From: Candidatus Bathyarchaeota archaeon
GTDB lineage: Archaea > Thermoproteota > Bathyarchaeia > Hecatellales > Hecatellaceae
Assembly: GCA_052246995.1 (NCBI GenBank)
Contig: JBQPWD010000004.1
Span: forward strand, 1 to 64,000
Length of the DNA stretch: 64,000 nucleotides
Reading direction: 5' to 3'
Under the pieces are notes generated by a model, which was given only the letters and a program-made list of their open reading frames with translations, was not told the origin of the DNA and made no database searches. Shown one piece after another: positions 3,790-33,041 of this stretch (position 1 is the first letter of the stretch; each line of letters begins with the position of its first letter). The translations under genes and the position numbers were made by a program.

Positions 3790-4062
3790 ATGAGGTTAGA
3801 AAGGATTTTTGGCAGTAAAATGCAAACAAGACTTGTAGAATATCTTTTACAAAACCATACCAAAGTTTTTAACCAAGCAGGATTATCCCGTTTTCTTAGA
3901 TGTTCTCCCTCAACCATTGCAAGAATTATTGAACCCCTAGTCCAAGAAGGCATAATACTTTACGAGCAAATTTCAGGACAAATGAAGATTCTAGCTTTAA
4001 ACCTTGAATCTGAAAAGGTTAAAGTTCTCATAGACTTTTATGAAAAAATTAAAAAGTTGTAG
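3790..4062 (+). CDS. Small winged helix-turn-helix protein
   Basis: IFGSK...LSRFLRCSPSTIARIIEPLVQEGII HTH pattern; SD GGTGAGG upstream. Confidence 0.7.
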   Translation: MRLERIFGSKMQTRLVEYLLQNHTKVFNQAGLSRFLRCSPSTIARIIEPLVQEGIILYEQISGQMKILALNLESEKVKVLIDFYEKIKKL

Positions 4063-4248
4063 AAAACGGTTAGTAAAACTTCAAAATAAATAAAACATAT
4101 CACCATTTAAACGCAAAACTACAAACTGTTTGAGAGAGTAATCCATCACTTTAACTCCTAAAAACCTGTTGACCACAACATTCCACAGCTATTTAAAAAC
4201 TAAAAAAGTTGTTTAAGATGAGAGTTAAAAGTTTAAGAAAACCTTCAT

Positions 4249-6186
4249 CTAGATTTTGCAGGCTACTTCCCATCCTTCATGAACTGCCTCCAAAATTCTT
4301 CTAGCTTCCACACAATCCCCAACTTTATGGATGGTTAAACCTTTATCTTTAAGCTTATTGTAAAGTTCCTGGTCTGCAACCATACCAACAGCTAAAATAA
4401 CGTTATCCGCCTTAATGTTTTCACGTTTACCTTCTCTTTCAACAACAGCTCCTTCATCAACAATTTCTACAAGTTTTGTGTTTGTCATTATTTTAATGTT
4501 CGGATTTTCTCTAAGTCTTTTAACAATAACCCATCTGGATGTAGGCCCAACATCTGACGCTATCCTGCTAAGCATTTCAACAAGTACAACTTTTTTACCT
4601 TTTTCAGCTAAAAATTCTGAAGTTTCACATCCAACCATTCCTCCTCCAGCAACAACAACACTACCCCCAACACTTACACGCTCCATTAAAACATCAACAG
4701 CTATAACAACGTGTTTTTTATCTATCCCTGGAATTTTTGGAACTAACGGTTTAGAGCCTGTTGCAACTATAACCTCATCAAAACCCCCCTTAACAACATC
4801 TCCAACATCAACATACTTACCAGTTTTAACCTCAACACCAAGCATACTCAGCTGATTAACCAGATAATCAACAAATTTAAGAATTTCATCCTTGTAGGGA
4901 GCTTTAGATGCAGCATGCAAATTTCCTCCAAGCTTATCAGACTGCTCCCACAAGGTAACCTTATGCCCTCTTAAAGCTGCAACTCTTGCAGCCTCCATCC
5001 CAGCAGGACCACCACCAACAACCAAAATCTTTTTAGTTTTTTCAGCAGGTTTTACCATTTTTTCCCATTCTCTTCCAACCTCAGCATTAACTGCACATTT
5101 AACCCCCCTATGTTCACCAAGAAACATTCCCATTATAATTTCATCAAAACACCTACAACAAGCAATACAAACCCTAACCTCGTTAAACCTACCCTCAACA
5201 GATTTTTTAACTATGTAGGGGTCTGCCAAATGTGCCCTAGATAACGCTATAAGGTCAGCTTTACCCTCACCAATAATTTGATTCGCAATTCTTACATCGT
5301 TAATTCTTCCAACAGCAACAACAGGAATCTTAATAACTTTCTTCATTTCTTCAGCCAACGATACAAAAAACCCATGTTTAACATCCATTGTTAACATGGG
5401 TACAGGCGACTCATGCCACCCAGCCCAAACATGAAACATATGCACCCCTGCTTCTTCAACCTTCCTAGCAAAAATCTTAGATTCCTCCATTGTAAGACCA
5501 CCTGGAAAATAATCGGAAACACTGTGTTTATAAGATATTGGAAAGTTTACACCTGTTTTCTTCTTAATATTTCTAATAACCTCCAAGGCGAACGTTGACC
5601 TACCATTAATGTCTCCACCATACTTATCCGTTCTCTTATTTGTTATAGGCGAGATAAACTGGCTTAAAAGGTATCCGGTAGAACCCATAAGTTCAACAGC
5701 ATCAAAACCAGCTTCCATAGCTCTTCTAGCAGCATCACCAAACTTTTCAACAATATCTTCAACCTCCTCGCTTGTTAACTCTCTAGGTGTTTCACCAGTA
5801 TACCTTGAAGGTATGGGTGAGGGTGCAACAGGTTGTGTGCCTATAATCCTAGATAAAGCATATCTTCCAGCATGATTTAACTGGATAGCAGCATAGGCTC
5901 CATTTTTCTTTATAGCCTTTGCAAGCTTACTTAACCCATCAATATACTTATCATCATCTATTCTTAACGTATACGGACCAAAACCTCCAACAGGATCTAT
6001 GGATGTTGCTTCAACAATAACCATTGCCGGGCCACCTTTAGCCCTTTCAGCATAATACTCAATCATTTTCTGGGTTGGATGACCATTCTCATCTGCAAAC
6101 CCAGTACCCATAGGCCCCATTAAAATCCTGTTTTTTAATGTTAAAGGACCAATATCTATTGGCTGAAAAACATTTTTAAGACTCAA
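4249..6186 (-). CDS. NADH:flavin oxidoreductase, old yellow enzyme / 2,4-dienoyl-CoA reductase (FadH)-like
   Basis: LKNRI, QLNHAGR, GYLLSQF.SP..NKRTDKYGG, Fe-S motif CIACCRC...C, GGGPAGMEAA FAD-binding motif. Confidence 0.9.
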   Translation of the reverse strand: MSLKNVFQPIDIGPLTLKNRILMGPMGTGFADENGHPTQKMIEYYAERAKGGPAMVIVEATSIDPVGGFGPYTLRIDDDKYIDGLSKLAKAIKKNGAYAAIQLNHAGRYALSRIIGTQPVAPSPIPSRYTGETPRELTSEEVEDIVEKFGDAARRAMEAGFDAVELMGSTGYLLSQFISPITNKRTDKYGGDINGRSTFALEVIRNIKKKTGVNFPISYKHSVSDYFPGGLTMEESKIFARKVEEAGVHMFHVWAGWHESPVPMLTMDVKHGFFVSLAEEMKKVIKIPVVAVGRINDVRIANQIIGEGKADLIALSRAHLADPYIVKKSVEGRFNEVRVCIACCRCFDEIIMGMFLGEHRGVKCAVNAEVGREWEKMVKPAEKTKKILVVGGGPAGMEAARVAALRGHKVTLWEQSDKLGGNLHAASKAPYKDEILKFVDYLVNQLSMLGVEVKTGKYVDVGDVVKGGFDEVIVATGSKPLVPKIPGIDKKHVVIAVDVLMERVSVGGSVVVAGGGMVGCETSEFLAEKGKKVVLVEMLSRIASDVGPTSRWVIVKRLRENPNIKIMTNTKLVEIVDEGAVVEREGKRENIKADNVILAVGMVADQELYNKLKDKGLTIHKVGDCVEARRILEAVHEGWEVACKI

Positions 6187-6263
6187 ACTTTTTCCACCTA
6201 CATTAAGTTGATTGTTAAAATATTTATTTAGCCTTTATGTACTATTTAATTTTAAGCAAAAAA

Positions 6264-6797
6264 TTAACTTCCACCTACAAGCCTACCCAGATTTTTTAGA
6301 CATTCTTCAACCTCTGTCCTCTCAAAATCAATAAACGGGATATCCAGCCTTTTTTTCTTAAACTCATCCAAAAGCTCCTCAATAAGTATACCTTTACCCT
6401 CAACCTCAACATCCTTCCCATCCTTTTTTATCCAAACTTTTTCCACACCACAACTAGGACTTCCTCTTTTACCTATTAAGCATAAAACTTTAAAACCGCT
6501 TCTAACATACCCCTCAGCAAGACTTACAACATTTTTAGCAATAACCCTACAATGTTTACGATATTCTAATGTATCCATGTCGGTTTTAGTTTGAGACTTT
6601 CTTATAAAACCAAATATAGGCTGTTCGGGGCATGGAAGCTGAACAATACTAACCTTTTTTTCCATAAGAAAACTTAAAACCTCATTTATCATCGCAGGCC
6701 AGATTGTTGGAGTTTTTGGACCTACAGCAACAGCATTAGAATTAAGTATACAATGAACAACAAAAACAACTTTCATACTTCTACCATCATTAATCAT
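6264..6797 (-). CDS. DUF523 / TudS-related (CD3072-like) Fe-S protein
   Basis: HCILN, QLPCPEQ, GSPSCG and GILIEEL motifs; real start probably at the second Met. Confidence 0.75.
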   Translation of the reverse strand: MINDGRSMKVVFVVHCILNSNAVAVGPKTPTIWPAMINEVLSFLMEKKVSIVQLPCPEQPIFGFIRKSQTKTDMDTLEYRKHCRVIAKNVVSLAEGYVRSGFKVLCLIGKRGSPSCGVEKVWIKKDGKDVEVEGKGILIEELLDEFKKKRLDIPFIDFERTEVEECLKNLGRLVGGS

Positions 6798-7461
6798 GAG
6801 ATGTCCTCTTATCCAGCCTTAAACTAGTAAAAGAGTTTTTACCTTTTTCCTTTATGATTTCAAGAGAATCTAAAAATTTTAAGGTTAACTTTAAAATTTT
6901 TAAATCTCCTCCAACCTCTAAATACTTCTCAGAAAAGTTATGTAAAATCTTTACATAGTTTACTGTTGACTCTAACGGTTTGTAAAAACTAAGAAACAAA
7001 AGTGAAACGACCAAGTCCCAAGCCATAAAGGACTTGTTAAAGCTTCTTATCGCCTGTTCTCCATCAACCACATAAACTTCATTACAGTTTTTAATAAAGT
7101 TTGAAGGTTTACTATCCCCTAAACACCATCCCTCCTTATGGATGGCTGCAAGCGTTTCAGCTAAATTTTCTGTGGCTTTAAGGATATCCATCTCTGAAAG
7201 TTTTTCACCTTCAACAAATTCCCTTTCCATTATTTTTCCTTCCCAATCAACAAGGTAAACTCTTGGAACCCTAAAATTATTATGAGGTGAAGTAAAAAAC
7301 TCATATTCTCTTTTAAGCCTCTCCTCAGCTAAAAGTGTAAACGGATAAAACGGTTTAAACGGTAACGAAATAAGCCACTTTACACTGGGTAAATCTAAAA
7401 ACCTTTTAACAACAACTTTCACGTGTCCTTTATCAACAATTTTTGCTTGCTCCAAAACCAA
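6790..7461 (-). CDS. Atypical protein-kinase-like fold protein (Bud32/Kdo/RIO-like)
   Basis: VVVKRF, MEREFVEG hinge, catalytic loop H...LGDSKPSN, VVDGEQ; no obvious Gly-rich loop, possibly N-truncated. Confidence 0.65.
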   Translation of the reverse strand: MVLEQAKIVDKGHVKVVVKRFLDLPSVKWLISLPFKPFYPFTLLAEERLKREYEFFTSPHNNFRVPRVYLVDWEGKIMEREFVEGEKLSEMDILKATENLAETLAAIHKEGWCLGDSKPSNFIKNCNEVYVVDGEQAIRSFNKSFMAWDLVVSLLFLSFYKPLESTVNYVKILHNFSEKYLEVGGDLKILKLTLKFLDSLEIIKEKGKNSFTSLRLDKRTSHD

Positions 7462-7687
7462 ATTTGAAGTCTACCTACAAAATTGTAAGCATCTGAACAA
7501 TATAAGGATAAACTATTAAAATAAGAAGAAAACTGCCAGAAAAAATTTTCCCAATAAGGATAATAGATAGGAAAAATGTAACAACTACCCAAAACCAAAA
7601 ACTTCCATTTTTTAAGCAAAAACTTAAAATTTAAGAAGTTCTAATAAAAGAATTCACTTTAAATCTTGTTAACACTATTTTTTCCAC

Positions 7688-8011
7688 TTGGTGTTGCTTA
7701 TGGTTGTTATTGTAGAGTTTTCACTAATTCCTATAGGAGTTGGTGAAAGTTTAAGCAAAACTTTAGCTTACGCATTGAAAGAGTTAGAAAAAATGAACAT
7801 TAAATTTCAGATTACCCCTATGTGTACAATTTTTGAAGCTGAAAGCATAGATGAAGCCTTTAACATAGTTAAAGCATGCCATGAAGCGTTTATCAAACAA
7901 GGAGTAAAACGAGTTTTAACAAGTGTAAAAGTTGATGACAGAAGGGATGTTGAAAGAAGAAACATGATGGAAAAAGTTAAGTCTATAGAGGACAAGTTAA
8001 AGAAAATGTAG
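7688..8011 (+). CDS. MTH1187/YkoF family thiamine-binding protein
   Basis: EFSLIPIG.GESLS...TPMCTIFEA...RVLTSVKVDDRRD. Confidence 0.88.
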   Translation: MVLLMVVIVEFSLIPIGVGESLSKTLAYALKELEKMNIKFQITPMCTIFEAESIDEAFNIVKACHEAFIKQGVKRVLTSVKVDDRRDVERRNMMEKVKSIEDKLKKM

Positions 8012-8027
8012 TGGTGTTGTAAGTTTA

Positions 8028-8798
8028 ATGAAAAATTGTGGAATAATCATTGTTGGAAACGAAATTCTTCAAGGATATGTTCAAGATACAAACTCAAGAT
8101 GGATCGCCAGAAAACTTACAGATTTAGGATATAATGTTAAAATCATGCTTGTTGTTGGAGATGTTATTGAAGATATCGGTGAAGCTTTAACTTTAACTTT
8201 TAAACTTAATCTCGACTTTGTATTTGTTTGCGGAGGTTTAGGACCAACTCCAGATGATAAAACCGTTGAAGCTGTAGCAAAACACTTTAACATTAAACTT
8301 ACACAGAATAAGAATGTTTTGGATGAAATTTCAAGAAAAATTTCCTTTTTAAAAGGAAAAGGTATAGTAGACATCAACCAGTCAAAATGGATAACCAAAA
8401 TGACATATATACCTGAGGGAAGCATACCTCTAAAAAATAGCCTTGGACTTGCACCAGGTATTCTCCTACAATTTAAAGGAAAAAACATATTCATGCTTCC
8501 AGGCGTCCCAGTTGAAATGAAAACTATTTTTGCTGAAGAAGTTGAACCCAGAATTGGAGTTGGGGAAAGAAGGGTTGTAAAAGAAATAGTATTAAAAAGT
8601 GAGGAGTCAAAATTTTCTGACATTGTGGAGAAGCTTGAAAACAAATATAGAAAGATTTGTATAGGAATGTATCCTCACTACGGTAAAATGGAGCTTATTA
8701 TAAGGATTGTAGGAAATGAAGTTGAAGTTTTATCTGCAATAGAAGAAATAAAGAAAGAGTCAGAAAAACTTGGTGTAGAAATTTTAAAGTTAACTTAA
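8028..8798 (+). CDS. CinA N-terminal / molybdopterin-binding domain protein
   Basis: GNEILQG.VQDTNS, GGLGPTPDDKT, LPGVP.EMK. Confidence 0.88.
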   Translation: MKNCGIIIVGNEILQGYVQDTNSRWIARKLTDLGYNVKIMLVVGDVIEDIGEALTLTFKLNLDFVFVCGGLGPTPDDKTVEAVAKHFNIKLTQNKNVLDEISRKISFLKGKGIVDINQSKWITKMTYIPEGSIPLKNSLGLAPGILLQFKGKNIFMLPGVPVEMKTIFAEEVEPRIGVGERRVVKEIVLKSEESKFSDIVEKLENKYRKICIGMYPHYGKMELIIRIVGNEVEVLSAIEEIKKESEKLGVEILKLT

Positions 8799-8801
8799 AA
8801 G

Positions 8802-9473
8802 CTAACTTTCAATCAACGTTTCAAGACGTTTTCTAACTTTACCAGCCTCTTCAGGTGTAACAGGTTTACCAGCTTTCACAATTTCTTGAACACTTTCGTT
8901 TAAAACATCATCTACCGTTTTACCTCTAACCGTTAAAGTTTTATGCTCAACAACTACTGGTTGAGGTTTCAGAAAAACACCCTTAACAAGTATACCATCA
9001 TCTATCTTACTAACTAAAATAAGCCCTATGTCTGCATCGTTACTTAAAACTCTATAGACATCATCTCCAAGACTTGTAGTCGAAATTTTTTTAAAAACGT
9101 AAACTTCAGGTTTTTTAACCTCCCCAGCTGAAAAAGCTAAAATTTTGGGTACTTCTAGCTTAACAATTTTTTCAATTTCTTCATCTGGAAATCTTCTACA
9201 AACTTCAAGCTTTAAGGTGTTATAGTTCCAAATAACTTCTCCATTCTTAACGTCATACTCAACCTTAACTCTAACTACATCTCCCCTTTCAGCTTTTAGT
9301 TTTTCAACAAGTAAAATGTAAAGTATTCTATTAAGTTCAGCAATAGCTTTAGCAACATTTTGAGCTGGAATACTACCGTCCTTTACCTGAGTTCTTAACT
9401 GAGCAAAAAGAGTTTTTCTAACTTTACCAGCATAACCTCCAACAATAACAAACCCTGTATTAAGAGCAACCAA
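8802..9473 (-). CDS. DUF2258 (ThermoDBP-related) nucleic-acid-binding protein with C-terminal extension
   Basis: LNTGFVIVGGYAGKVRKTLFAQL...AELNRILY..LV...GDVVRV.VEY matches the DUF2258 pattern. Confidence 0.75.
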   Translation of the reverse strand: MVALNTGFVIVGGYAGKVRKTLFAQLRTQVKDGSIPAQNVAKAIAELNRILYILLVEKLKAERGDVVRVKVEYDVKNGEVIWNYNTLKLEVCRRFPDEEIEKIVKLEVPKILAFSAGEVKKPEVYVFKKISTTSLGDDVYRVLSNDADIGLILVSKIDDGILVKGVFLKPQPVVVEHKTLTVRGKTVDDVLNESVQEIVKAGKPVTPEEAGKVRKRLETLIES

Positions 9474-9740
9474 ATCTTCATCACCATATTAAAACTATGG
9501 TTGACTAAGTATATATTGTAATATTTTTGTTTAATTTTACTTATTATTTTGCACAACGCTAAGCAACACAACTTCATTACGTTAACGATAAAAAGATTTC
9601 AGTAGCTAAACAGTAGAAAAGAGAAAGATATAAATTAAGAGTCTACACTACATAGACCAAGTTTTAACAAAGTTACCATGTTTAGGTTAAGTTATCAAGC
9701 AAAGATAAGAGTTTACCGTTAGAAAAAGGTGTAAAGTAAA

Positions 9741-11153
9741 ATGAAGAGTACACACTCATTAGATATATTTTTTTACCCAAAAAGTGTAGCTATAGTGGGA
9801 GCTACAAGAAACCCAGCTAAGCCAGCATACTATGTAACAGAAAACCTTGTTAAACTAGGCTTTACGGGAAAAATTTACCCTATAAATCCTAACGCTAGTG
9901 AAATTTTAGGGTTAAAATGCTATCCAAGCTTAAAAGATGTGTCGGATGAGGTAGACCTTGTTATTTCATTGGTTCCAGCGTCAGCAATATTAAAAGTAGT
10001 AGAGGAGTGTTCTGAAAAAGGAGTTAAGGGGATTGTTGTTATTGCAGGAGGTTTTTCTGAAGGAGGAAAAGTTGGAAGAGAGTTAGAAAAGAAAATTAGT
10101 GAAATCTTAAGAAAAACCGGTATGAGACTTCTTGGTCCAAACACGTTAAGCCCCATTAACCCTACAAATAAACTTATAGTTAGCTTTAGGGGTGTAAAAG
10201 AACTTAAAAAAGGTTCTTTAGCTTTTTGTTTTCAATCTGGAATGTATGAACCTAAACTTGGATGGATCTTTGACGGTATTCATCTTGGTGTAAGTAAGAT
10301 TATTGATGTTGGTAATAAGCCGGATATAAATGAGGTTGATGTTTTAGAATATCTAGGCAAGGACGATGAAACAAACGTAATAGCACTTCACATCGAGAAT
10401 ATTAAAGGAAACAGTAAAAGGTTTGTTGAGCTTCTAAAAGAAACTACAAGAAAAAAACCGGTTATAGTTATTAAAGGTGGACGTACAAACATGGGAGCAA
10501 AGGCATCCTTAACACACACAGGATCATTGTCAGAAGGCAACTACACAATTTTTAAAGCTGTATTAAAGCAGACTGGAGCTATCCACGCGCAAACCTTAGA
10601 GGAGTTCTTTGATTTTGCTAAAATTTTCGAGTTTCTTAAACCTCCAAAAGGTAATAGAATTGGAATTATAACTTTAAGTGGGGGTGAAGGAGTTATTGCT
10701 GTAGATTGCTGCGAAGAGAATGGTTTTAAGCTAGCTGAAATTAAAAGTGAAACAATTGAACAGCTAAGAAAAGTTTATCCCCCATGGAACATTCCTTCAA
10801 ACCCATTTGATATGGGTCCATGTATAGAGTTTCATGGAAATGCTAAAGTCTGTAAAGTAGTACTGGGCAGCATATCTAAAGATGAAAATGTTGATTGTAT
10901 GGCCATCCAGCTTCCAGCATTTATTCCTCCACCAGAACTTGAAGAAGTTGTTAAATCATTTTTAAAGCTAAAAGAGCTGGATAAACCTGTTGTTGTTTGG
11001 AGAGCCACAATGGGTAAACAGGAGGATAGAATAGTTGAAGAGTTGGAAAGAAACTATATACCAGTTTACCCGTCTGTTGAAAGAGCTATTAAGGCTTTAG
11101 GAAAACTGTACGAGTATAAGGTTTTTCTCGAAAAACTGAAAGAAAAAACTTAA
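9741..11153 (+). CDS. Acyl-CoA synthetase (NDP-forming) alpha subunit
   Basis: F.PKSVAIVGA, GGFSEGG, LLGPN, QSG, phospho-His motif HTGSL, NPFD. Confidence 0.85.
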   Translation: MKSTHSLDIFFYPKSVAIVGATRNPAKPAYYVTENLVKLGFTGKIYPINPNASEILGLKCYPSLKDVSDEVDLVISLVPASAILKVVEECSEKGVKGIVVIAGGFSEGGKVGRELEKKISEILRKTGMRLLGPNTLSPINPTNKLIVSFRGVKELKKGSLAFCFQSGMYEPKLGWIFDGIHLGVSKIIDVGNKPDINEVDVLEYLGKDDETNVIALHIENIKGNSKRFVELLKETTRKKPVIVIKGGRTNMGAKASLTHTGSLSEGNYTIFKAVLKQTGAIHAQTLEEFFDFAKIFEFLKPPKGNRIGIITLSGGEGVIAVDCCEENGFKLAEIKSETIEQLRKVYPPWNIPSNPFDMGPCIEFHGNAKVCKVVLGSISKDENVDCMAIQLPAFIPPPELEEVVKSFLKLKELDKPVVVWRATMGKQEDRIVEELERNYIPVYPSVERAIKALGKLYEYKVFLEKLKEKT

Positions 11154-26591: not shown

Positions 26592-27767
26592 TTGAAGAGG
26601 AAAGAAGAACTTTTGTTAATGATTCCTGGACCGACAAATGTTCCAGAAAGAATTATGAAAACACTTAAGAAACCTATGACAAACCACCGTGGGCCTGAGT
26701 TTCGCAGTCTTTATCAGGGAATTTTAGAGAAACTAAAATATGCTTTCCAGACAAAAAATGATGTTTACCCATTAACATGTTCAGGTACTGGTGGAGTTGA
26801 AGCTGCTGTTGGAAATGTTATTTCTAGGGGGGATAAAGTTATTGTTCCGATGTTTGGACAGTTTTGTGAAAGAATGGGTGAAACCGTTAGACGTTTTGGT
26901 GGCGAGGTTATTGAGGTTAAGGCGGAATGGGGTTCTGCGTGTAGTGTTGAAGAAATTAAGGCTATTCTTGATGTAGAAAAAAATGTTAAAGCTGTTGCTG
27001 TGGTGTATAATGAAACTTCAACTGGTGTAACATTAAGAAGCCTACCAGATATAGGCAAGATTACAAGGGAAAGGGGTGTGCTATTGATTGTTGACGCGGT
27101 TTCAGTTCTACTTGGAGATTATTTACCTGTTGATGAGTGGAATGTGGACTTATGTGTCGCCGGAAGTCAAAAATGTTTTGCATGTCCACCTGGTTTAGCA
27201 ATGGTTTCTGTAAGTGAAAAAGCTTATGAAGCTGCCGAAAAAAACAAGTTTAGACCATTTAATCACGACTTTTTATTGTGGAGGGAATTTAAAGCTAAAC
27301 TTGAAACACCCTTTACACCGTGTATTCCACTGTACTATGCTTTAGATGAAGCATTAAACATTCTTATTGAAGAAGGGTTAGAAAATAGAATCCGTAGACA
27401 TATAACTTGTGCTGAAGCGTTCTACAAAACGTTTGAAAATTTAAATTTAAAAATCGTTGCTAAAGATGAGCTTAGGTCAAACACTATAATTGTTCCATAT
27501 ATTCCTGAGAACATAAATGTTGATGAATTTAGAAAAATTTTGAAAGAAAGGTTTAGGGTTGTTGTTGCAGGGGGAGTTGGTAAGCTTAAGGGCAAGGTTA
27601 TTAGGATAGGGAGTATGGGGGTTGTTTCAGCTTACGAGGTTTTAGCTACAATTAATGGTATAATTAAAACGTTAAAGATGCTCAACTACAAGCCTGAAAA
27701 ACAATTTAAAAAAACTGTTTTAGAAGCTAAAGAAGTGCTTTCTCAACTAAAAGATTTTAAGTTTTAA
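26592..27767 (+). CDS. Class V PLP aminotransferase (serine-pyruvate / alanine-glyoxylate family)
   Basis: LMIPGPT, HRGPEF, SGTGG.EA, NETSTG, VDAVS, GSQKC..PPG, RIGSMG. Confidence 0.9.
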   Translation: MKRKEELLLMIPGPTNVPERIMKTLKKPMTNHRGPEFRSLYQGILEKLKYAFQTKNDVYPLTCSGTGGVEAAVGNVISRGDKVIVPMFGQFCERMGETVRRFGGEVIEVKAEWGSACSVEEIKAILDVEKNVKAVAVVYNETSTGVTLRSLPDIGKITRERGVLLIVDAVSVLLGDYLPVDEWNVDLCVAGSQKCFACPPGLAMVSVSEKAYEAAEKNKFRPFNHDFLLWREFKAKLETPFTPCIPLYYALDEALNILIEEGLENRIRRHITCAEAFYKTFENLNLKIVAKDELRSNTIIVPYIPENINVDEFRKILKERFRVVVAGGVGKLKGKVIRIGSMGVVSAYEVLATINGIIKTLKMLNYKPEKQFKKTVLEAKEVLSQLKDFKF

Positions 27768-29022
27768 TTTCTCCTTTTATTCCCATCTTTTCTAAGACTA
27801 TATCCAAAATTTTTTCTGCAATTTCTTCTTTTCTTGCCATAGGTAGTTTTACAAAACTTTTATTCTTATCAACAACAAGAACCTCATTTGTTTCATGTCG
27901 AAAGCCCACATTTTTCCTACCAACATCATTTGCCACAATTAGGTCTATATTGGCAGACTTAAGACGTTTATACGCTCGTTCTACAAGTTCCTCATCACTT
28001 AAATTATACTCAGCTTTAAATCCAACAACAAAGGTTTTAGGGCTAACCTTCTTAGCTTCTTTAACAATTTTTAATGTTGGTTTAAGCTTTAAATCAAGCA
28101 TTAATGTATCATCGGTGGAAACTTTCTGGTTATACGACTCTATTGGGGTAAAGTCTGCAACAGCTGCAGCCGAAATAAATAAGTGATAGTTTTCTGATTT
28201 AAGCTGTGATAACACGGTGTCAGCCATTTCATTTGACGTTTCCACATTTACTACTTTAATATTTGTTGGAGGTCTAACTATGCCAGGTCCATAAATAAGT
28301 GTAACTTCAGCACCCCTTCTAGAGGCCTCTGACGCGAGGGCTACACCCATTCTTCCAGAGCTTTTATTGGTTATTATTCTGATAGGGTCTATGTACTCGT
28401 AGGTTGGTCCAGCAGCCACTAAAACTTTTAACCCATCCATATCCTTAACGGCTAACCTTTTAACAACAGCTTCAACTATTACTTCTACATCAGCAATCTT
28501 AGCCTTACCTTCCTCAATCCTAGGCTCTATAAACTCAAAACCAAGTTTTTTAAGTTTTTCAATGTTGTCCTTGTTAATAGGATACTCGTAGAGAACCTTA
28601 TGCATAGCTGGAACAACAAGTATGGGTATTCCAGCACTATAAGCAGCTAAAACTAAGGCGGTTACAGGAGTGTCATTTATCCCTGAAGCAAGTTTTCCTA
28701 TTGTATTTAGTGTTGCGGGAGCAATAAGCACAAGGTCAACTTTACCTGAACTTTCAGTTAAAGATAGAAAGTCAATACTGCCATTCATCTCAACAACAGG
28801 CTTATTACCTGTAGCCCACTCTAAAACATCAGGGTTAAGCATTTTTTGGGCCATTGGAGACATAACAGGAAAAACTTCAGCACCCATTCTCATTAATTCT
28901 CTTGCAACCTTGGGTGCAGTTGTTAATGCAATACTTCCAGTAATGCATAAAGCTACCCTTTTACCGTAAAGCTTAGTGCTCTTTGAACCTAGAATATCTT
29001 TTGATGGATGGCTCTTTTCCAT
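27757..29022 (-). CDS. coaBC: Bifunctional phosphopantothenoylcysteine decarboxylase/synthetase
   Basis: ITGSIA, APAT.NTIGK, PAMH, GPT.E.IDP.R.ITNKSSG.MG, AAAVADF, GFKAE, ANDV. Confidence 0.93.
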   Translation of the reverse strand: MEKSHPSKDILGSKSTKLYGKRVALCITGSIALTTAPKVARELMRMGAEVFPVMSPMAQKMLNPDVLEWATGNKPVVEMNGSIDFLSLTESSGKVDLVLIAPATLNTIGKLASGINDTPVTALVLAAYSAGIPILVVPAMHKVLYEYPINKDNIEKLKKLGFEFIEPRIEEGKAKIADVEVIVEAVVKRLAVKDMDGLKVLVAAGPTYEYIDPIRIITNKSSGRMGVALASEASRRGAEVTLIYGPGIVRPPTNIKVVNVETSNEMADTVLSQLKSENYHLFISAAAVADFTPIESYNQKVSTDDTLMLDLKLKPTLKIVKEAKKVSPKTFVVGFKAEYNLSDEELVERAYKRLKSANIDLIVANDVGRKNVGFRHETNEVLVVDKNKSFVKLPMARKEEIAEKILDIVLEKMGIKGEIKT

Positions 29023-29951
29023 AAACCTCCAACCATACTATTTTTTTCTAACATCTTAATTAAAAATGTTAAAAGCGTATTTAGAGGTGTTGGAACTCCA
29101 GTGGAAATACCTAAACGAGATATTGCCCCATTTATATAATCTATTTCCGTTTTTCTTCCCCTCTTAATGTCTTGAAGCATAGAGTTAAAGTTTTCAGCAG
29201 TATCTTTTGCTGTTTTAAATGTTAATTCCACAGGGTCTTCTTGTAGTCGAATTTTAAGTTTATCTGCAACTTTAACACCTTCTAAAACTGTTTCAGCGAT
29301 AAGTTGCTTTAAATCAGCATACTCTAAAAGTTCACCATTTCTCATACCAGTTAAGGTTCCAAACGGATTTATTCCCGCGTTAACAAGAGTCTTTGTCCAA
29401 ACAACTGAGCCAATATTATCAGAAATCTCTACTTGAAAACCAGAGTCTTTAAGGTTTTTAGCAACACCAGCAACACCATCATGACTTTTTCTAGACAATC
29501 CTCCAAGAAAGGTTTTACCAAAACCTGTTGAAACAACAACACCAGGTTTCTCTAAGAAGGCTCCACAAAACGTTACTCCACGTATAATGTTCGCCTCTCC
29601 AATCATCTTTAAAACCTCATCCTCAACGCCTATACCATTCTGTAAACATAGAACCATGGTTTTTTTCCTGATTAGAGGGCATACCTGCTTGGAAGCTTCA
29701 GAAACATCGTAGGCTTTGACTGTTAAAAGAATGAGATCCCATGCCTCTTTTATTAAGGGTTGTATTGACGTTTCAGCCCTAATACTTTTCACAACTTTTT
29801 CCACCAATCCCTCCATTTTTAATCCATAACTTTTAATAGCTTTAACATGTTCTTCCCTAGCAACAATTGTAACATCGTTCTCACCATTAGATGCGAGTAA
29901 ACCTGCAAAAAGACTTCCTATGGAACCAGCGCCCATAACAAGGATTTTCAT
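28989..29951 (-). CDS. panE: 2-dehydropantoate 2-reductase
   Basis: GAGSIG, TVKAY, LQNGIG, WTK..VN..INP, SMLQD...GR.TEIDYING. Confidence 0.93.
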   Translation of the reverse strand: MKILVMGAGSIGSLFAGLLASNGENDVTIVAREEHVKAIKSYGLKMEGLVEKVVKSIRAETSIQPLIKEAWDLILLTVKAYDVSEASKQVCPLIRKKTMVLCLQNGIGVEDEVLKMIGEANIIRGVTFCGAFLEKPGVVVSTGFGKTFLGGLSRKSHDGVAGVAKNLKDSGFQVEISDNIGSVVWTKTLVNAGINPFGTLTGMRNGELLEYADLKQLIAETVLEGVKVADKLKIRLQEDPVELTFKTAKDTAENFNSMLQDIKRGRKTEIDYINGAISRLGISTGVPTPLNTLLTFLIKMLEKNSMVGGLWKRAIHQKIF

Positions 29952-29977
29952 GGAAAAACTCCAGAACTACAACTTTT

Positions 29978-31282
29978 TTACGTAACTTTTTCCCACTTTT
30001 CAATTCTCAAAACTTGCGAAAGTGTACTACCTACCCTAATTTCAGCTTTAATTCTCTGCTCTTTCTCAAGAACATCTTTAGCCCTGTTTGCGATTTCGAC
30101 GGCAATTTCTTTAGGCACAACAACTATACCCGTATCGTCAGCAATAATCCAATCTCCAGGCCTAACTTTAGCCCCTCCACAGTAAATTTCAACATTTATT
30201 TCTCCAAAACCTTTAGGATCTCCAGCTGTGGGGTTTACATATTTAGCAAATACTGGAAAGTTCATCTTTCTTATTTCGTCGACATCTCTAACAGCACCAT
30301 CAATAACAACACCATTCAATCCTTTAACCACACAACTTAAAGTTGCAAGCTCACCCCACACAGCCTTTTTGCTATCACACGCATCAATAACTAAAATGGA
30401 GCCGGGTTCAGCCACATCTATGGCTTCAACAGGTTTAGCCCAATCTCCAGGAGCTGTTTTAACTGTTACAGCTTTACCTACAGCTTTAACACCAGTAACT
30501 ATTGGGAAAATTCCAAACATCTCACCTTTTCTTTGCATAGCATCAGAAATGTTTGCTGAGGAGACCTCCATAAACACTTTTTGAATATCTTCCTCACCAT
30601 ACTTCTTGTAAAGTTTTGTTGGAATGGGCTTTCTTTGTCTTATAGACTCTTTGATTACTTTTGTAGCTTCTTCAGCATTTTCAGCCTTAATTATGGCTCC
30701 ACCAACAATAACTATGCTTGCTCCAGCTTCAACGGCTAAGGGTGCTGTTTCACTATTTATTCCCCCAGCTACAGCAACAGGAATGTTTACAGCATTAACA
30801 ACACCCCTAAGAACATCCAAGGGTTTAATACCTCTCATTTGTTGGTCTATACCAACGTGAACACAGATATAATCTACACCAATTTTTTCAAGCTCAACAG
30901 CTCTTTTAACGTGATTTTCAACGCCTAAAAGGTCAACCATTATTTTTGCACCATACCTCCGCCCTGCCTCAACAGCCTCCCTAATAGTACTATCATCCGA
31001 AACTCCAAGGATTATTACCACTTCAGCCCCAGCTTTAGCAGCGGTCTCAACTTCAACTGACCCTGTATCCACGGTTTTCATGTCAGCAAGGATGGTATAG
31101 CTTGGAAACCTTCTTTTTAACTCTCTAACAGCATCTAAGCCTTCACTCTTAATCAGTGGTGTTCCAGCCTCTAACCAATCTGCTCCTCCGCGGACAGCTT
31201 CTTCAGCAACTTTTAATGCCCTATGAAGGTCTGTAAAATCTAGCGCTACTTGAAGTTTAGTCTCCTTAAAAAGATTGGACAT
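29978..31282 (-). CDS. 3-hexulose-6-phosphate synthase fused to an RraA/HMG-aldolase-like domain
   Basis: N-terminal ~215 aa: LQVALD, EAGTPL, ADMKTVDTG, VHVGIDQQ, VAGGI. C-terminal: ISDAM, GKAVTV, AVWGEL, IDGAVRD..EI, V.PGD.I.AD..G.VV.P. Confidence 0.92.
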   Translation of the reverse strand: MSNLFKETKLQVALDFTDLHRALKVAEEAVRGGADWLEAGTPLIKSEGLDAVRELKRRFPSYTILADMKTVDTGSVEVETAAKAGAEVVIILGVSDDSTIREAVEAGRRYGAKIMVDLLGVENHVKRAVELEKIGVDYICVHVGIDQQMRGIKPLDVLRGVVNAVNIPVAVAGGINSETAPLAVEAGASIVIVGGAIIKAENAEEATKVIKESIRQRKPIPTKLYKKYGEEDIQKVFMEVSSANISDAMQRKGEMFGIFPIVTGVKAVGKAVTVKTAPGDWAKPVEAIDVAEPGSILVIDACDSKKAVWGELATLSCVVKGLNGVVIDGAVRDVDEIRKMNFPVFAKYVNPTAGDPKGFGEINVEIYCGGAKVRPGDWIIADDTGIVVVPKEIAVEIANRAKDVLEKEQRIKAEIRVGSTLSQVLRIEKWEKVT

Positions 31283-31291
31283 GGATATTTA

Positions 31292-32140
31292 CTAACCCCC
31301 CTTTATTATTTCAGATATTATCCTTTTTTCTAGAATTTCAGCTCTGGCTAGTACACCAGGTTTTAGAAGCCTCCTCTCAGCAAATACCTTTAACCTTTTA
31401 CACATAAAATCGACAATTTTGCATAAATTTTCACAATTGTTGTACGAGGCTACCATATTTTTAAGCTTAAGCTTGTTCTCAAACCTTAAATTTTCAGCAA
31501 TTTTAATCATATTTGGCAATGCTCTAACAACATTGTCAACTATCGTAACCGAAGCCCACAGTGCTGTTCTGGAAAACGGGTTTAAATCTATAGCTATAAC
31601 ATTTTTACCCATTTTTCGTAGACATTCTGTTCTATCACCATCCTCAATAGCTAGAAGAACGGTATCAGCTAAGAAGATACCCCTAGGAGAAACCTTACGT
31701 CTTAAGCTGGATAAACCAGGTATTTCTGATGATGCCTCATACCCGACACCAAAAATAGCCTCTAAACCTCTATCCTTTAAAAGTTTAGCTATTTTTGCCT
31801 CACGCGCTAAAGATCTATAAAAAAGGTTTACTTCAACCTTTGCATTAACACTCTTCGCAAGCCTAACGATCTCATCAACACATAAAGCCGCAGCATTACC
31901 GTTAACCGAGATAACAGGATATTTAGATAAAAGCATCATAGCTACAGCTACTTTTTCAGCTTCAAACGCAAATGGCAGGGTTTTTTCTCCAAGAATGTAG
32001 TCAAAGCATTCTCCTCTACCGTGAGCAATAAGTCCAGCTAACGCCACAAGACCCTTCTCAAATCCCTCTACAAGTTTTTCACGGATTCTTAAGGATTCAG
32101 CTCTTGGATGATTTTCAGGTATATGAAATTTATTGCTCAA
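31292..32140 (-). CDS. pps: 4-phosphopantoate--beta-alanine ligase (phosphopantothenate synthetase)
   Basis: HPRAESL..RE, IAHGRGE.FDY..GE, SVNGN, EVNLFYR, EDGDR, IDLNP.SRT. Confidence 0.95.
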   Translation of the reverse strand: MSNKFHIPENHPRAESLRIREKLVEGFEKGLVALAGLIAHGRGECFDYILGEKTLPFAFEAEKVAVAMMLLSKYPVISVNGNAAALCVDEIVRLAKSVNAKVEVNLFYRSLAREAKIAKLLKDRGLEAIFGVGYEASSEIPGLSSLRRKVSPRGIFLADTVLLAIEDGDRTECLRKMGKNVIAIDLNPFSRTALWASVTIVDNVVRALPNMIKIAENLRFENKLKLKNMVASYNNCENLCKIVDFMCKRLKVFAERRLLKPGVLARAEILEKRIISEIIKGG

Positions 32141-33041
32141 TTATCCTCGCCCCTATCAAATCAACATCTGAAGTGATAATTTCACCACCAACCTTTCTAA
32201 ACAAGTTAACATAGGGAAAAACATCCTCAAGTTTATCCTCCTTTATAAGTGTAAATAGTGCTTCACCAAACATGTTCATTGAAAATCTCTGTCCGTTATA
32301 CCTATCCAAAATATCTAGTACATTTCTTAGCCTTTGAGTGTAAATGTTAACTTCATCAGCAAACATTCTAGAAGCTTTTATGAAAGTTTCAACTGATGGT
32401 TTTGCTAGGAAATGTTTCAAAGCTTTTCTTCCAGCCAGATTTATTCTTAACCTAACTTCACGATTTTTCAAGAAGGTCTTTGTTGGTAAAGCTGAGAAAT
32501 ATAAAGAAACAACCTTAAAGCTTGACCAGTTAAACTTCCTTATGGAGCCTACCCCTGGAGCACCAGCTTTATCTCTAACCTCAAATCCGCCGAAAGTTTC
32601 ACCTATAACAGTCCCAAGACCAGTTTTACATTTGATTTCAGCTAAATGTGCAAGTTGTGCTGCTTCGACTTTAGATAATCCTAAATTTAACGCCTCATTT
32701 AAGGCTAGTGACAATCCTAGAACTCCGGCTCCGCTTGTACCGTAACCAGCTCCTACTGGTAGATCGGTTTTATGTATAACTTTAATGTTGTAAGGTTTTT
32801 CTACAAGTTTTGAAAGCTCATTTATCAGTGTTAGAGACACGTCAGCTTTGGTTGGAGAACTATTTATGCTTATGCTTACAATCCACCTATGACTTTTCTC
32901 CACCTCAACCTCGGTGTACACACCTTTGGTTAGCGAAAAACCTCCGCCAAGAGAACCTTTCCTTAGCAAATTTTTATATTTATCATTTATAATAAAAAAA
33001 CCTGTTATATGAGCTGGTGCGAAGGCTTTAACTTTTTTCAA
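32130..33041 (-). CDS. pok: Pantoate kinase (GHMP family)
   Basis: AF.PAHITGFF, GS.G.G, P.GAGYGTSG, AH.AE....TGLG.V, GAPG.G. Confidence 0.92.
   Translation of the reverse strand: MKKVKAFAPAHITGFFIINDKYKNLLRKGSLGGGFSLTKGVYTEVEVEKSHRWIVSISINSSPTKADVSLTLINELSKLVEKPYNIKVIHKTDLPVGAGYGTSGAGVLGLSLALNEALNLGLSKVEAAQLAHLAEIKCKTGLGTVIGETFGGFEVRDKAGAPGVGSIRKFNWSSFKVVSLYFSALPTKTFLKNREVRLRINLAGRKALKHFLAKPSVETFIKASRMFADEVNIYTQRLRNVLDILDRYNGQRFSMNMFGEALFTLIKEDKLEDVFPYVNLFRKVGGEIITSDVDLIGARIIEQ

Follow-up and report, generated by a model that had tools for sequence, protein, structure and literature searches.

An HPS-RraA fusion at the panB position of an archaeal CoA operon is a candidate enzyme for folate-free ketopantoate formation

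In the Bathyarchaeon analysed here, a two-domain protein that joins HPS (3-hexulose-6-phosphate synthase) to an RraA-like domain stands at the usual place of panB in an operon for coenzyme A (CoA) synthesis, and is a strong candidate, as yet unproven, for making ketopantoate without folate. Judging from sequence and gene context, we consider it somewhat probable that the fusion stands in for the PanB that this genome lacks. If true, many archaea that seem to be without the usual route to the vitamin B5 precursor would have one that needs no folate. Computational checks in archaea (panB absence, complementarity and linkage) favour such a replacement, which a sequence-only reading had proposed, whereas the bacteria, the absence of linkage in most Thermoplasmatota and the confinement of linkage to essentially a single lineage speak against it.

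The operon lies in a 64,000-nucleotide stretch of DNA (the window), in whose ORF list it appears as five co-oriented minus-strand ORFs, pok-pps-[HPS-RraA]-panE-coaBC (Table 1). The five genes had been described as overlapping or lying at most 26 nt apart. The ORFs and their domain matches confirm it, with an 11-nt overlap of PoK and PPS, gaps of 9 nt between PPS and the fusion and 26 nt between the fusion and PanE, and a PanE/CoaBC overlap that measured 34 nt. A gene order is judged by its conservation among relatives rather than against chance, and that test came out positive. PPS scores 344 with NF010324 (cut-off 227) and 300.9 with NF041123 (cut-off 300), while PoK takes its top NCBIfam names from two models for pantoate kinase, NF041122 at 167.7 bits and NF040725 at 128.3 bits, each short of its equivalog cut-off.

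Table 1. Genes of the operon and features of the HPS-RraA fusion, in window coordinates
Feature	Position	Strand	Description
Pantoate kinase (PoK), operon gene 1	33041-32130	minus	303 aa; GHMP_kinases_N, E 1.4e-9
4-phosphopantoate--beta-alanine ligase (PPS)	32140-31292	minus	282 aa; PF02006, 226.2 bits
HPS-RraA fusion, candidate ketopantoate-forming enzyme	31282-29978	minus	434 aa; NF005442, 659.6 bits (cut-off 593)
3-hexulose-6-phosphate synthase domain, residues 8-214	30641-31261	minus	TIGR03128, 225.4 bits (cut-off 200)
RraA-like/class II aldolase domain core, residues 243-388	30119-30556	minus	PF03737, 162.5 bits
Family-specific motif GDWAKPVEAID, residues 279-289	30416-30448	minus	HMG/CHA aldolase has Asn-71/Phe-74/His-75 there
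G310-E311	30350-30355	minus	Align with 3NOJ Gly-101 (pyruvate pocket lining) and Asp-102
R332-D333	30284-30289	minus	Align with HMG/CHA aldolase Arg-123 (catalytic) and Asp-124 (metal ligand)
E406	30065-30067	minus	Aligns with 3NOJ metal ligand Glu-199; within conserved C-terminal helix
Ketopantoate reductase (PanE)	29951-28989	minus	320 aa; TIGR00745, 267 bits (cut-off 141)
Bifunctional CoaBC (PPCS/PPCDC), final operon gene	29022-27757	minus	421 aa; TIGR00521, 371 bits (cut-off 219.7)

The absence of panB, first remarked for the window, extends to the whole genome (1.53 Mb in 17 contigs; completeness 100%, contamination 0.54%). PF02548 gave no match in it at E≤1, in a search where 11 of 14 control genomes matched, and tblastn with five Bathyarchaeia PanB queries reached a best E of only 0.21. 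Both methanogen controls also lack PanB and carry PPS and an RraA-like gene. A homologue of HpcH/HpaI aldolase was not found in the genome, and the fusion is its sole RraA-like gene. Hexulose-6-phosphate could be supplied by 6-phospho-3-hexuloisomerase (PHI), encoded as a separate gene (194.5 bits, cut-off 160), and 2-ketoisovalerate by a pathway of which IlvD is present. The genome uses methanopterin (Mch, 389 bits); Fae, which passes formaldehyde to methanopterin, was not found in it. The window also contains a second HPS, fused to aldehyde:ferredoxin oxidoreductase (AOR).

Archaea with a pantoate-using pathway have one of two genes, that for PanB or that for the fusion, and hardly ever the pair together. 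Among 201 Bathyarchaeia genomes, the 57 with PPS comprise 14 with the fusion only, 35 with PanB only, one with both and seven with neither. PanE is missing from those seven too, and when PPS and PanE are both required (42 genomes) the counts become 13, 28, one and none. Thermoplasmatota show the same pattern (151 genomes, 141 with PPS: 110 fusion only, 28 PanB only, one both, two neither), which might trace back to only two clades, genomes having been counted without regard to kinship. A PanE-like gene is present in 92 of the 111 fusion-bearing Thermoplasmatota; the remaining 19 gave no match with the query used, which counts against PanB replacement, as do the two genomes with both genes, G116 and G271. 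The PanB of G116 (contamination 8%) is intact and lies in a non-CoA context. No PanB was found in any of the 32 archaea-labelled fusion genomes reached via loci, but among the 17 fusion genomes labelled as bacteria a full PanB was present in 7, and two more gave weak or partial matches. The anticorrelation expected of fusion and panB is therefore strong in Bathyarchaeia and Thermoplasmatota and does not extend to bacteria.

Gene neighbourhoods point the same way in Bathyarchaeia. PanB and PPS matches lie within 2 kb of each other in 31 of the 36 Bathyarchaeia genomes carrying both; 20 of these 31 loci were inspected, and are ordered PoK-PPS-PanE-PanB, PPS-PanE-PanB-PoK or PoK-PPS-PanB-PanE, with no full PanE adjoining PanB in three. 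The pairing of PoK with PPS is retained among relatives. Fusion loci read PoK-PPS-fusion-PanE-CoaBC, so that the fusion occupies the slot held by PanB in PanB-bearing relatives. CoA linkage was seen in 7 of 80 genome loci, these being all the Bathyarchaeia-labelled loci in the set, and in 11 of 80 metagenome loci. It persists through rearrangement, since PanE-fusion is divergent from PoK-PPS-CoaBC in G116 and the arrangement is CoaBC-fusion in G014. PanE is always the neighbour of the fusion in CoA-linked loci, and the 20 fusion-adjacent PanEs form a single clade (SH-aLRT 99). In the fusion gene tree, 20 of 21 CoA-linked rows fall in one 49-row clade and the linked label needs four changes. 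The CoA-linked fusions are thus essentially one gene lineage, implying few independent events, and the linkage may be one old module that was inherited or transferred. Conserved linkage to pok, pps and panE, another expectation of the original proposal, holds for Bathyarchaeia, where it takes in coaBC and the PanB slot, but not for most Thermoplasmatota, where the fusion is unlinked to CoA genes. Exceptions are Thermoplasmatota genome G329 and metagenome locus L199 (Thermoplasmatota clade), in which PanE adjoins the fusion. Across 66 of the 73 genome loci from outside Bathyarchaeia, 14 is the largest number of loci that share a neighbour family, and the recurring families include no CoA gene.

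The fusion matches PF00215 at residues 8-208 and PF03737 at 243-388, and its AlphaFold2 model has a pLDDT of 90.7 and a pTM of 0.71. The HPS domain superimposes on 3ajx (Foldseek TMt 0.90) and 3f4w (TMt 0.92), and its residues D15, E38, D67, K69, H142 and D146 are invariant in 57 fusions. The two-domain architecture is shared with Methanospirillum hungatei HPS-MenG (Mhun_0647; NF005442, 'bifunctional hexulose-6-phosphate synthase/ribonuclease regulator'). A position within a CoA operon is a feature mainly of Bathyarchaeia-type loci. For the M. hungatei orthologue an HPS activity of 0.21 μmol/min/mg has been reported, the role of the MenG-like half being stated as unknown in the accessible part of that paper (PMC5241800). 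That the RraA half has no assigned role, as had been claimed, also agrees with the accessible text of Kono et al. 2017 and with our literature searches, which found none.

For the C-terminal half, the nearest solved relative is HMG/CHA aldolase of Pseudomonas putida F1 (PDB 3NOJ; E 2.5e-26, Foldseek TMt 0.82), a class II pyruvate aldolase of RraA fold, although identity in the Foldseek alignment is only 26%. The RD..E motif said to be retained was located at R332-D333-V-D-E336. The fusion has equivalents of 3NOJ Arg-123, Asp-124, Glu-199 and Gly-101, whose roles are described in the accessible part of PMC5065237, and the corresponding R332, D333, E406 and G310 are invariant in 57/57 fusions. 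Among 66 fusions, identity reaches 97% or more at 100 of the 434 positions, every aldolase catalytic and metal residue included. By alignment, the RraA half retains a class II 2-oxoacid aldolase's metal ligands together with its catalytic Arg. Unlike 3NOJ, the fusion has the invariant GDWAKPVEAID motif (G279, D280, W281, K283 and E286 invariant in 57 fusions), a conserved C-terminal helix and an HPS partner; 3NOJ His-75, Thr-145 and Lys-147 are replaced by Pro, Gly and Pro, and Asn-71 is without counterpart. This dissimilar distal pocket shows that the substrate is a different one, without telling which, and weighs against PanB replacement. Characterised RraA-family aldolases act by enolising pyruvate, and that we know of none that enolises a branched 2-oxoacid counts on the same side.

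In the proposed route, PHI would convert fructose-6-phosphate to hexulose-6-phosphate, which the N-terminal HPS domain would cleave to ribulose-5-phosphate and formaldehyde. The RraA-like domain would act as a metal-dependent class II aldolase, binding 2-ketoisovalerate via Mg2+ (with D333 and E406 as its ligands and E311 close by), stabilising its enolate with R332 and adding formaldehyde at C3 to give ketopantoate, without a folate or methanopterin carrier. PanE, encoded 26 nt downstream, would then form pantoate, which PoK, PPS and CoaBC would take to 4'-phosphopantetheine. Fusion to HPS would raise the local formaldehyde concentration and shield the rest of the cell from the toxic aldehyde; the protein may also take other 2-oxoacids. 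The substrates proposed here contrast with those of 3NOJ, pyruvate with pyruvate or oxaloacetate. With PanB (PF02548) the fusion shares its place in the operon, between pps and panE, and would have in common its product, its pathway position and a Mg2+-dependent enolisation of a 2-oxoacid. The two are however unrelated in sequence and fold (a TIM barrel of the PEP-mutase/ICL superfamily against an alpha-beta-beta-alpha sandwich), and PanB takes its C1 unit from 5,10-methylene-tetrahydrofolate, whereas the fusion would use free formaldehyde out of a sugar phosphate. The net reaction would be that of ketopantoaldolase (EC 4.1.2.12), 2-ketoisovalerate + formaldehyde -> ketopantoate, an old activity entry that is mostly considered to have no physiological role in E. 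coli and is, to our knowledge, without an assigned dedicated gene; a literature search by term and EC number found no relevant paper on it. HPS is likewise joined to a handler of its product or substrate in Fae-HPS and in HPS-PHI (PDB 9LJ9, matched by the HPS half with E 4.5e-70), the partner being a pterin-condensing enzyme in the former, an isomerase in the latter and of aldolase type here. The Fae-HPS fusion of methanogens is described as formaldehyde capture in the part of PMC5241800 available and, with the AOR-fused second HPS, suggests by analogy that HPS fusion partners handle formaldehyde.

Formaldehyde handling might also be the whole function. The fusion could be a general formaldehyde sink of the reverse ribulose-monophosphate pathway, its RraA domain joining HPS-derived formaldehyde to an abundant 2-oxoacid, most simply pyruvate, the substrate of characterised relatives (PMC5065237, accessible part), to give 4-hydroxy-2-oxobutanoate. 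This would pull pentose synthesis forward and detoxify the aldehyde, ketopantoate coming from another enzyme or side activity, or pantoate from uptake. Consistent with such a sink, the fusion is a near-universal, CoA-unlinked core gene of non-PanB Thermoplasmatota (111/151), and in 5/5 complete Thermoplasmatota genomes no other HPS scores above cut-off, making a broader formaldehyde-handling role possible; if it carries pentose synthesis there, formaldehyde output would far exceed the need for pantoate. Its coexistence with PanB in bacteria fits as well. Bacterial fusions are 54-62% identical to that of the window, with the same invariant active-site residues, and have as neighbours FolD, a cyclodeaminase-like gene, PabB/PabC or transketolase (which adjoins the fusion in L095), not pantothenate genes. 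We nevertheless think a general sink rather unlikely, as it leaves unexplained the position-for-position replacement of panB, the panE adjacency kept through rearrangements and the presence of PanB or the fusion in 42/42 Bathyarchaeia with PPS and PanE. Moreover, the AOR-fused HPS could already dispose of formaldehyde, and the homoserine dehydrogenase present in the genome would make a route from 4-hydroxy-2-oxobutanoate to homoserine unneeded.

The folate genes near bacterial fusions bear on a further alternative, to which we give little credence, namely that the RraA domain is a Fae-like formaldehyde activator loading tetrahydrofolate or tetrahydromethanopterin, and that an unrecognised methylene-pterin-dependent enzyme makes ketopantoate. 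FolD is found in the flanks of 12 of the 80 genome loci, all bacteria-labelled; among mapped loci it adjoins the fusion directly, or across one UPF0047 gene, in L056, L062, L069 and L095, and lies ~3 kb upstream in L057, while L062 additionally has the cyclodeaminase-like gene and PabB/PabC. Use of methanopterin by a genome without Fae would also suit a pterin-loading role. The conserved Arg/Asp/Glu set is however of the metal-bound 2-oxoacid enolate type rather than a pterin site, and neither the operon, which offers no candidate extra enzyme, nor the searches for PanB and HpcH/HpaI homologues yielded the second activity. It is highly improbable, finally, that the RraA half is a non-catalytic oligomerisation scaffold or HPS regulator in a protein that serves as HPS for pentose synthesis, its place in the CoA operon irrelevant to pantoate and PanB-less archaea importing pantoate or pantothenate: RraA in E. 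coli is no enzyme but a binding protein (PMC5065237, accessible part), HPS activity is the only one measured for an orthologue in the literature as accessible, and the seven Bathyarchaeia genomes with PoK-PPS but no PanB, PanE or fusion indicate that salvage exists in the class, yet the near-identical positions of the fusions include every aldolase catalytic and metal residue, and salvage-type genomes are without PanE, whereas fusion genomes keep it directly downstream, where it would be useless without a source of ketopantoate.

The five co-oriented genes that the sequence-only reading had joined into a CoA operon, with overlaps or small gaps between them, were recovered as described: open reading frames, Pfam and NCBIfam families and junctions (−11, +9, +26 and −34 nt) all agree on a tightly packed PoK-PPS-fusion-PanE-CoaBC array, encoding pantoate kinase, phosphopantothenate synthetase, the HPS-RraA fusion, ketopantoate reductase and PPCS/PPCDC. 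A run recorded as RNA (X5), belonging to another study than the window's likely source, yielded contigs that match the operon at 99% identity or more; they covered 28 of 30 bins, with single contigs spanning the PPS/fusion and PoK/PPS junctions. These do not establish one transcript, and since the library may contain DNA we gave them no weight; two more RNA runs from X5's study yielded no matching contigs. A class V aminotransferase gene lies convergent with coaBC, overlapping its 3′ end by 11 nt.

Features of the window (positions are those of the window unless another locus or genome is named)
Feature	Position	Strand	Assignment
Class V aminotransferase, 391 aa	26592-27767	+	best names aspartate-glyoxylate and pyridoxamine-pyruvate transaminase, all under cut-offs
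CoA operon, five genes	27757-33041	-	
PoK	in operon	-	best names are two pantoate kinase models, each under its equivalog cut-off
PPS	in operon	-	PF02006; NF010324 344 (cut-off 227)
HPS-RraA fusion, 434 aa	29978-31282	-	NF005442 659.6 (cut-off 593); TIGR03128 225.4 (cut-off 200); PF03737 162.5 bits
PanE	in operon	-	TIGR00745 267 (cut-off 141)
CoaBC	in operon	-	TIGR00521 371 (cut-off 220)
AOR-HPS fusion, 823 aa	59383-61854	+	AFOR_N 270.8 bits, AFOR_C 302.1 bits; C-terminal PF00215 84.4 bits
Methylpurine-DNA glycosylase	61817-62449		
ORF, 242 aa, downstream of the glycosylase gene	62483-63211	+	no Pfam match at E<=0.001
Fusion locus L062, bacteria-labelled	3998-10836		
Fusion locus L095, bacteria-labelled	4340-9046		
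RraA-like match in a 413-aa open frame	G173:C1:1407568-1408044	-	82.9 bits

PanB, the ketopantoate hydroxymethyltransferase, had been noted as missing from the window, and its absence extends to the whole genome (1.53 Mb in 17 contigs, completeness 100%, contamination 0.54%). A PF02548 profile search gave 0 matches at E<=1 in this genome, with 11 of 14 control genomes positive, and tblastn with five PanB proteins from Bathyarchaeia relatives gave a best E of only 0.21; the same queries produced 105 matches in PanB-bearing loci. Members of HpcH/HpaI, another family of TIM-barrel class II aldolases, were likewise not found in the genome, and the fusion is its only RraA-like gene. As the fusion protein does not match PF02548, it would, if it forms ketopantoate, be an analogue of PanB rather than a member of its family. 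Judging from a separate 6-phospho-3-hexuloisomerase (PHI) gene (194.5 bits, cut-off 160) and an encoded dihydroxy-acid dehydratase, the presumed substrates of the fusion are available.

We next compared gene neighbourhoods. Among 80 genome loci with the fusion, all seven labelled Bathyarchaeia or Hecatellales have the order PoK-PPS-fusion-PanE, followed by CoaBC in six; the closest loci show 90% and 78% identity. The other 73 loci, from Thermoplasmata, Methanomassiliicoccales, DHVE2 and at least 17 bacteria-labelled contigs, had no CoA genes in their flanks save a PPS gene in one (L078), 4 kb off and on the opposite strand. The neighbourhood with pok, pps and panE is conserved within Bathyarchaeia and missing from most Thermoplasmatota. 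Clustering of 812 neighbour ORFs from the 80 loci gave no family present in more than 14 of them and no conserved CoA neighbour outside Bathyarchaeia; the most frequent families were M48 peptidase, FolD, KaiC-like ATPases and an ABC ATPase. In a metagenome scan 11 of 80 loci were CoA-linked, some with a PoK that has diverged much further (32-37% identity), others with only fusion-PanE or PanE-fusion. The operon is rearranged in one genome (G116) with the fusion-PanE pair intact, in another (G014) the fusion still adjoins CoaBC, and the operon of a third (G007) only seems split, the assembly being broken there between the ends of two contigs. PanB and PPS matches lie within 2 kb of each other in 31 of the 36 Bathyarchaeia genomes that have both. 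Twenty of these 31 PanB-bearing CoA loci were fetched, three of them without a full PanE beside PanB, and their orders include PoK-PPS-PanE-PanB-x-CoaBC, PPS-PanE-PanB-PoK and PoK-PPS-PanB-PanE, the last being the order of the window's operon with PanB standing where the fusion stands.

The distribution of the two proteins points the same way in archaea. Of 201 evenly sampled Bathyarchaeia genomes, 15 had the fusion (14 RraA matches in 433-473-aa frames, plus G007), 70 had PanB, 57 had PPS and 55 had PanE above cut-off. The 57 genomes with PPS divide into 14 with the fusion only, 35 with PanB only, 1 with both and 7 with neither; for the 42 with both PPS and PanE the corresponding counts are 13, 28, 1 and 0. 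Among 151 Thermoplasmatota genomes (fusion in 106, plus five contig-end fragments; PanB in 31; PPS in 141), the PPS-bearing ones comprise 110 with the fusion alone, 28 with PanB alone, 1 with both and 2 lacking both. PanB was absent from all 32 archaea-labelled fusion genomes to which their loci led (50 of the 73 loci submitted), and two of two methanogen control genomes, the sole data from Halobacteriota/Methanobacteriota, had PPS and an RraA-like gene without PanB. The anticorrelation with PanB stands in Bathyarchaeia and Thermoplasmatota but breaks down in bacteria, where full PanB accompanies the fusion in 7 of 17 bacteria-labelled genomes, with weak matches in two more. Fisher tests on the two archaeal distributions overstate the complementarity, because related genomes are not independent. 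The Thermoplasmatota counts are uncorrected for kinship, so their pattern may rest on very few events, and it coincides with all the other differences between the PanB-bearing group and the remaining genomes. With the exceptions of the bacteria-labelled genomes and of two archaea that have both proteins, G271 and G116 (PanB intact and outside a CoA context; 8% contamination), the fusion shows the genomic behaviour of a PanB replacement, in operon slot and in complementary distribution.

Phylogenetic analysis bears on how often the linkage arose. A FastTree phylogeny of 158 fusions (from 157 of 164 loci and from the window, leaving out HSPs shorter than 400 residues and rows with stop codons) falls into two parts, one of 109 Thermoplasmatota rows with a single linked row (L199), and one of 49 rows that holds 20 of the 21 CoA-linked rows together with a bacterial subclade to which all 12 FolD-linked rows belong. 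Only four changes of linkage label are needed on this tree, and the 20 fusion-adjacent PanEs form one clade (SH-aLRT 99), from which the CoA linkage is best understood as a single old fusion-PanE module rather than many independent inventions. This module has persisted while sequences diverged deeply (down to ∼60% identity) and gene order was rearranged several times, and it was probably passed between the Bathyarchaeia families f1, f2, f22 and f29. Its PanE clade is placed, with weak support, beside a PanB-linked clade of Bathyarchaeia. Across phyla, PanE type did not track fusion or PanB cleanly (four changes on a 74-row tree, from which L234, with an internal stop codon, and L107, L109, L111, L129, L130, L138 and L139, without a full PanE, were excluded).

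On this genomic evidence we consider it somewhat probable that the fusion replaces PanB, joining formaldehyde from its HPS half to 2-ketoisovalerate to give ketopantoate as the sequence-only reading had proposed. No other explanation of the operon is as well supported, and in archaea it withstood the computational checks which that reading had put forward. The main competing explanation, that the fusion is a general formaldehyde-scavenging aldolase and ketopantoate is made otherwise, is rather unlikely; it predicts the bacterial co-occurrence with PanB, the genomes with both proteins, the folate and pentose genes beside some bacterial fusions and the Thermoplasmatota in which the fusion is the only HPS. 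L062 carries an FTCD_C-like cyclodeaminase, FolD, UPF0047, the fusion, a 354-aa ORF without a Pfam match, and PabB-like and PabC-like genes, and L095 carries FolD, the fusion and a split transketolase. In all five complete Thermoplasmatota genomes the fusion is the sole HPS above cut-off, so there it may also carry pentose synthesis, releasing far more formaldehyde than pantoate needs. Also against a simple account, bacterial fusions are 54-62% identical to the window's and share with it all invariant active-site residues. One alternative use of formaldehyde, a route to homoserine via 4-hydroxy-2-oxobutanoate, is superfluous because the window's genome encodes homoserine dehydrogenase. Replacement of PanB can be stated in a form that fits the bacterial and archaeal facts together: the basic activity would be transfer of formaldehyde from hexulose-6-P onto a 2-oxoacid, and in organisms that lack PanB the important product would be ketopantoate.

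A pterin-loading, Fae-like role for the RraA half is improbable. The window's genome encodes Mch (389 bits) and SHMT with only a weak FolD-like match, and no Fae was found in it; from these genes the organism appears to use methanopterin. That the RraA half is non-catalytic is very improbable indeed, given what its active site retains. Its closest solved relative is 3NOJ, the HMG/CHA aldolase of Pseudomonas putida F1 (E 2.5e-26), and its fold is alpha-beta-beta-alpha (TMt 0.82 to 3noj and 0.83-0.88 to 3k4i, on a model of pLDDT 90.7). For 3NOJ, Mazurkewich and Seah (2016, PMC5065237) describe Arg-123 as essential for stabilising the enolate of pyruvate; Asp-124 and Glu-199 bind the metal, and Gly-101 lines the pyruvate pocket. 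The aligned residues R332, D333, E406 and G310 are invariant in 57 of 57 fusions, archaeal and bacterial; R332 and D333 open the RD..E motif already noticed in the sequence, which here runs from R332 to E336. In a set of 66 fusions, 100 of the 434 positions are at least 97% identical. Aldolases of this class form trimers, in which Glu-199 is supplied by the adjacent subunit to complete the metal site.

The rest of the pocket differs. Distal residues His-75, Thr-145 and Lys-147 of the HMG/CHA aldolase are replaced by P284, G354 and P356, Asn-71 sits in an insertion without a counterpart, and the fusion family, unlike the aldolase, has its own invariant motif GDWAKPVEAID. Scores for the aldolase proper are low (TIGR02798 116.8, cut-off 304.5; NF006731 129.8, cut-off 179), and with the altered distal pocket this means that the fusion should not be classed as an HMG/CHA aldolase. 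Models of RraA, the RNase E inhibitor, also fell short (NF006875 77.1, cut-off 136; TIGR02998 51.4, cut-off 241). The conserved catalytic and metal residues combined with the divergent distal pocket indicate that the RraA half is very probably a metal-dependent 2-oxoacid enolising enzyme whose partner substrate is other than that of HMG/CHA aldolase, although the sequence does not identify its 2-oxoacid.

The HPS half, by its sequence, is canonical: it exceeds the equivalog-domain cut-off over residues 10-214 and has the TIM barrel of solved HPS enzymes (Foldseek TMt 0.90, rmsd 2.0, to 3ajx; 0.92 to 3f4w), and NF005442, the model of the HPS/‘ribonuclease regulator’ fusion, spans residues 7-433. 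HPS enzymes interconvert hexulose-6-P with ribulose-5-P plus formaldehyde, the latter corresponding to C1 of the hexulose. PMC5241800 reports this activity for the M. hungatei orthologue, the only fusion with a measured activity, and says outright that what its ‘MenG-like’ half does is unknown. This agrees with the earlier remark that the RraA half has no assigned role, as does our search of the open-access literature (subscription papers and supplements were outside its scope), which returned neither a role for an RraA/MenG-like half nor a proposed archaeal substitute for PanB.

CoA is universal, yet in many Archaea no gene can be recognised for the first committed step towards its pantoate moiety. 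In our samples PanB is lacking from the fusion-only genomes, which are 110 of the 141 Thermoplasmatota and 14 of the 57 Bathyarchaeia that have PPS, and from both methanogen controls. More tentatively than for the operon itself, we suggest that HPS-RraA could be the ketopantoate-forming enzyme of most PanB-less archaea, namely the Thermoplasmatota outside the PanB-bearing group, part of the Bathyarchaeia and probably methanogens, by a carrier-free hydroxymethylation with free formaldehyde as C1 donor. A single polypeptide would free formaldehyde from hexulose phosphate and add it at once to 2-ketoisovalerate; with no folate or methanopterin adduct, free formaldehyde would be a physiological biosynthetic C1 donor and CoA synthesis would be coupled directly to sugar-phosphate metabolism. 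If so, the archaeal CoA pathway would be closed, a widespread protein annotated ‘ribonuclease regulator’ or ‘MenG-like’ would gain a function, and one EC step would have a second, non-homologous solution. It would also be an example from nature of formaldehyde being channelled by an enzyme into C-C bond formation, relevant to engineered formaldehyde assimilation and biocatalytic 2-oxoacid hydroxymethylation.

The window encodes a second HPS-type domain, at the C terminus of a complete aldehyde:ferredoxin oxidoreductase (AOR). Frames of ∼780-905 aa with an HPS match, counted by the HPS half alone, occur in 12 of 40 relatives, and our literature search returned nothing on such a fusion. From its domains, the protein looks like one that oxidises HPS-released formaldehyde to formate while reducing ferredoxin. 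With RraA as one partner and AOR as the other, we infer that each HPS in these organisms is joined to a domain capable of using up formaldehyde, by analogy with Fae-HPS in methanogens as described in PMC5241800. Bulk pentose synthesis could then fall to the AOR-fused HPS, and the RraA-fused copy could be reserved for the CoA operon.

Several genomes depart from these patterns. No PanE-like match (window's PanE as query, E<=1e-10) was found in 19 of 111 fusion-bearing Thermoplasmatota, all with PPS and several of them single contigs of 1.3-1.9 Mb (G252, G264, G285, G293, G299, G311, G312, G351, G353, G356, G361, G366, G371, G376, G386, G390, G394, G398 and G400); the other 92 have a PanE-like gene. 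The ketopantoate reductase of those 19, if any, is of another kind. Seven Bathyarchaeia genomes (G038, G067, G043, G103, G131, G184 and G108; loci L120-L125 and L119) keep PoK-PPS without PanB, fusion or PanE above E 1e-20, with CoaBC nearby in three and PanE absent both nearby and genome-wide, a gene content that suggests pantoate salvage by uptake. PanB occurs without a PPS match in 34 of the 201 Bathyarchaeia genomes. The introduction of PMC6650551 names Bathyarchaeota among lineages without PoK/PPS, in contrast to the PPS found here in 57 of 201; by gene content, Bathyarchaeia are heterogeneous in their route from pantoate to phosphopantothenate. Genus g29 (three genomes, 86-96% complete) has no RraA-like gene, and the RraA-like match of G173, a genome without the HPS fusion, lies in a frame that may be a different RraA fusion.
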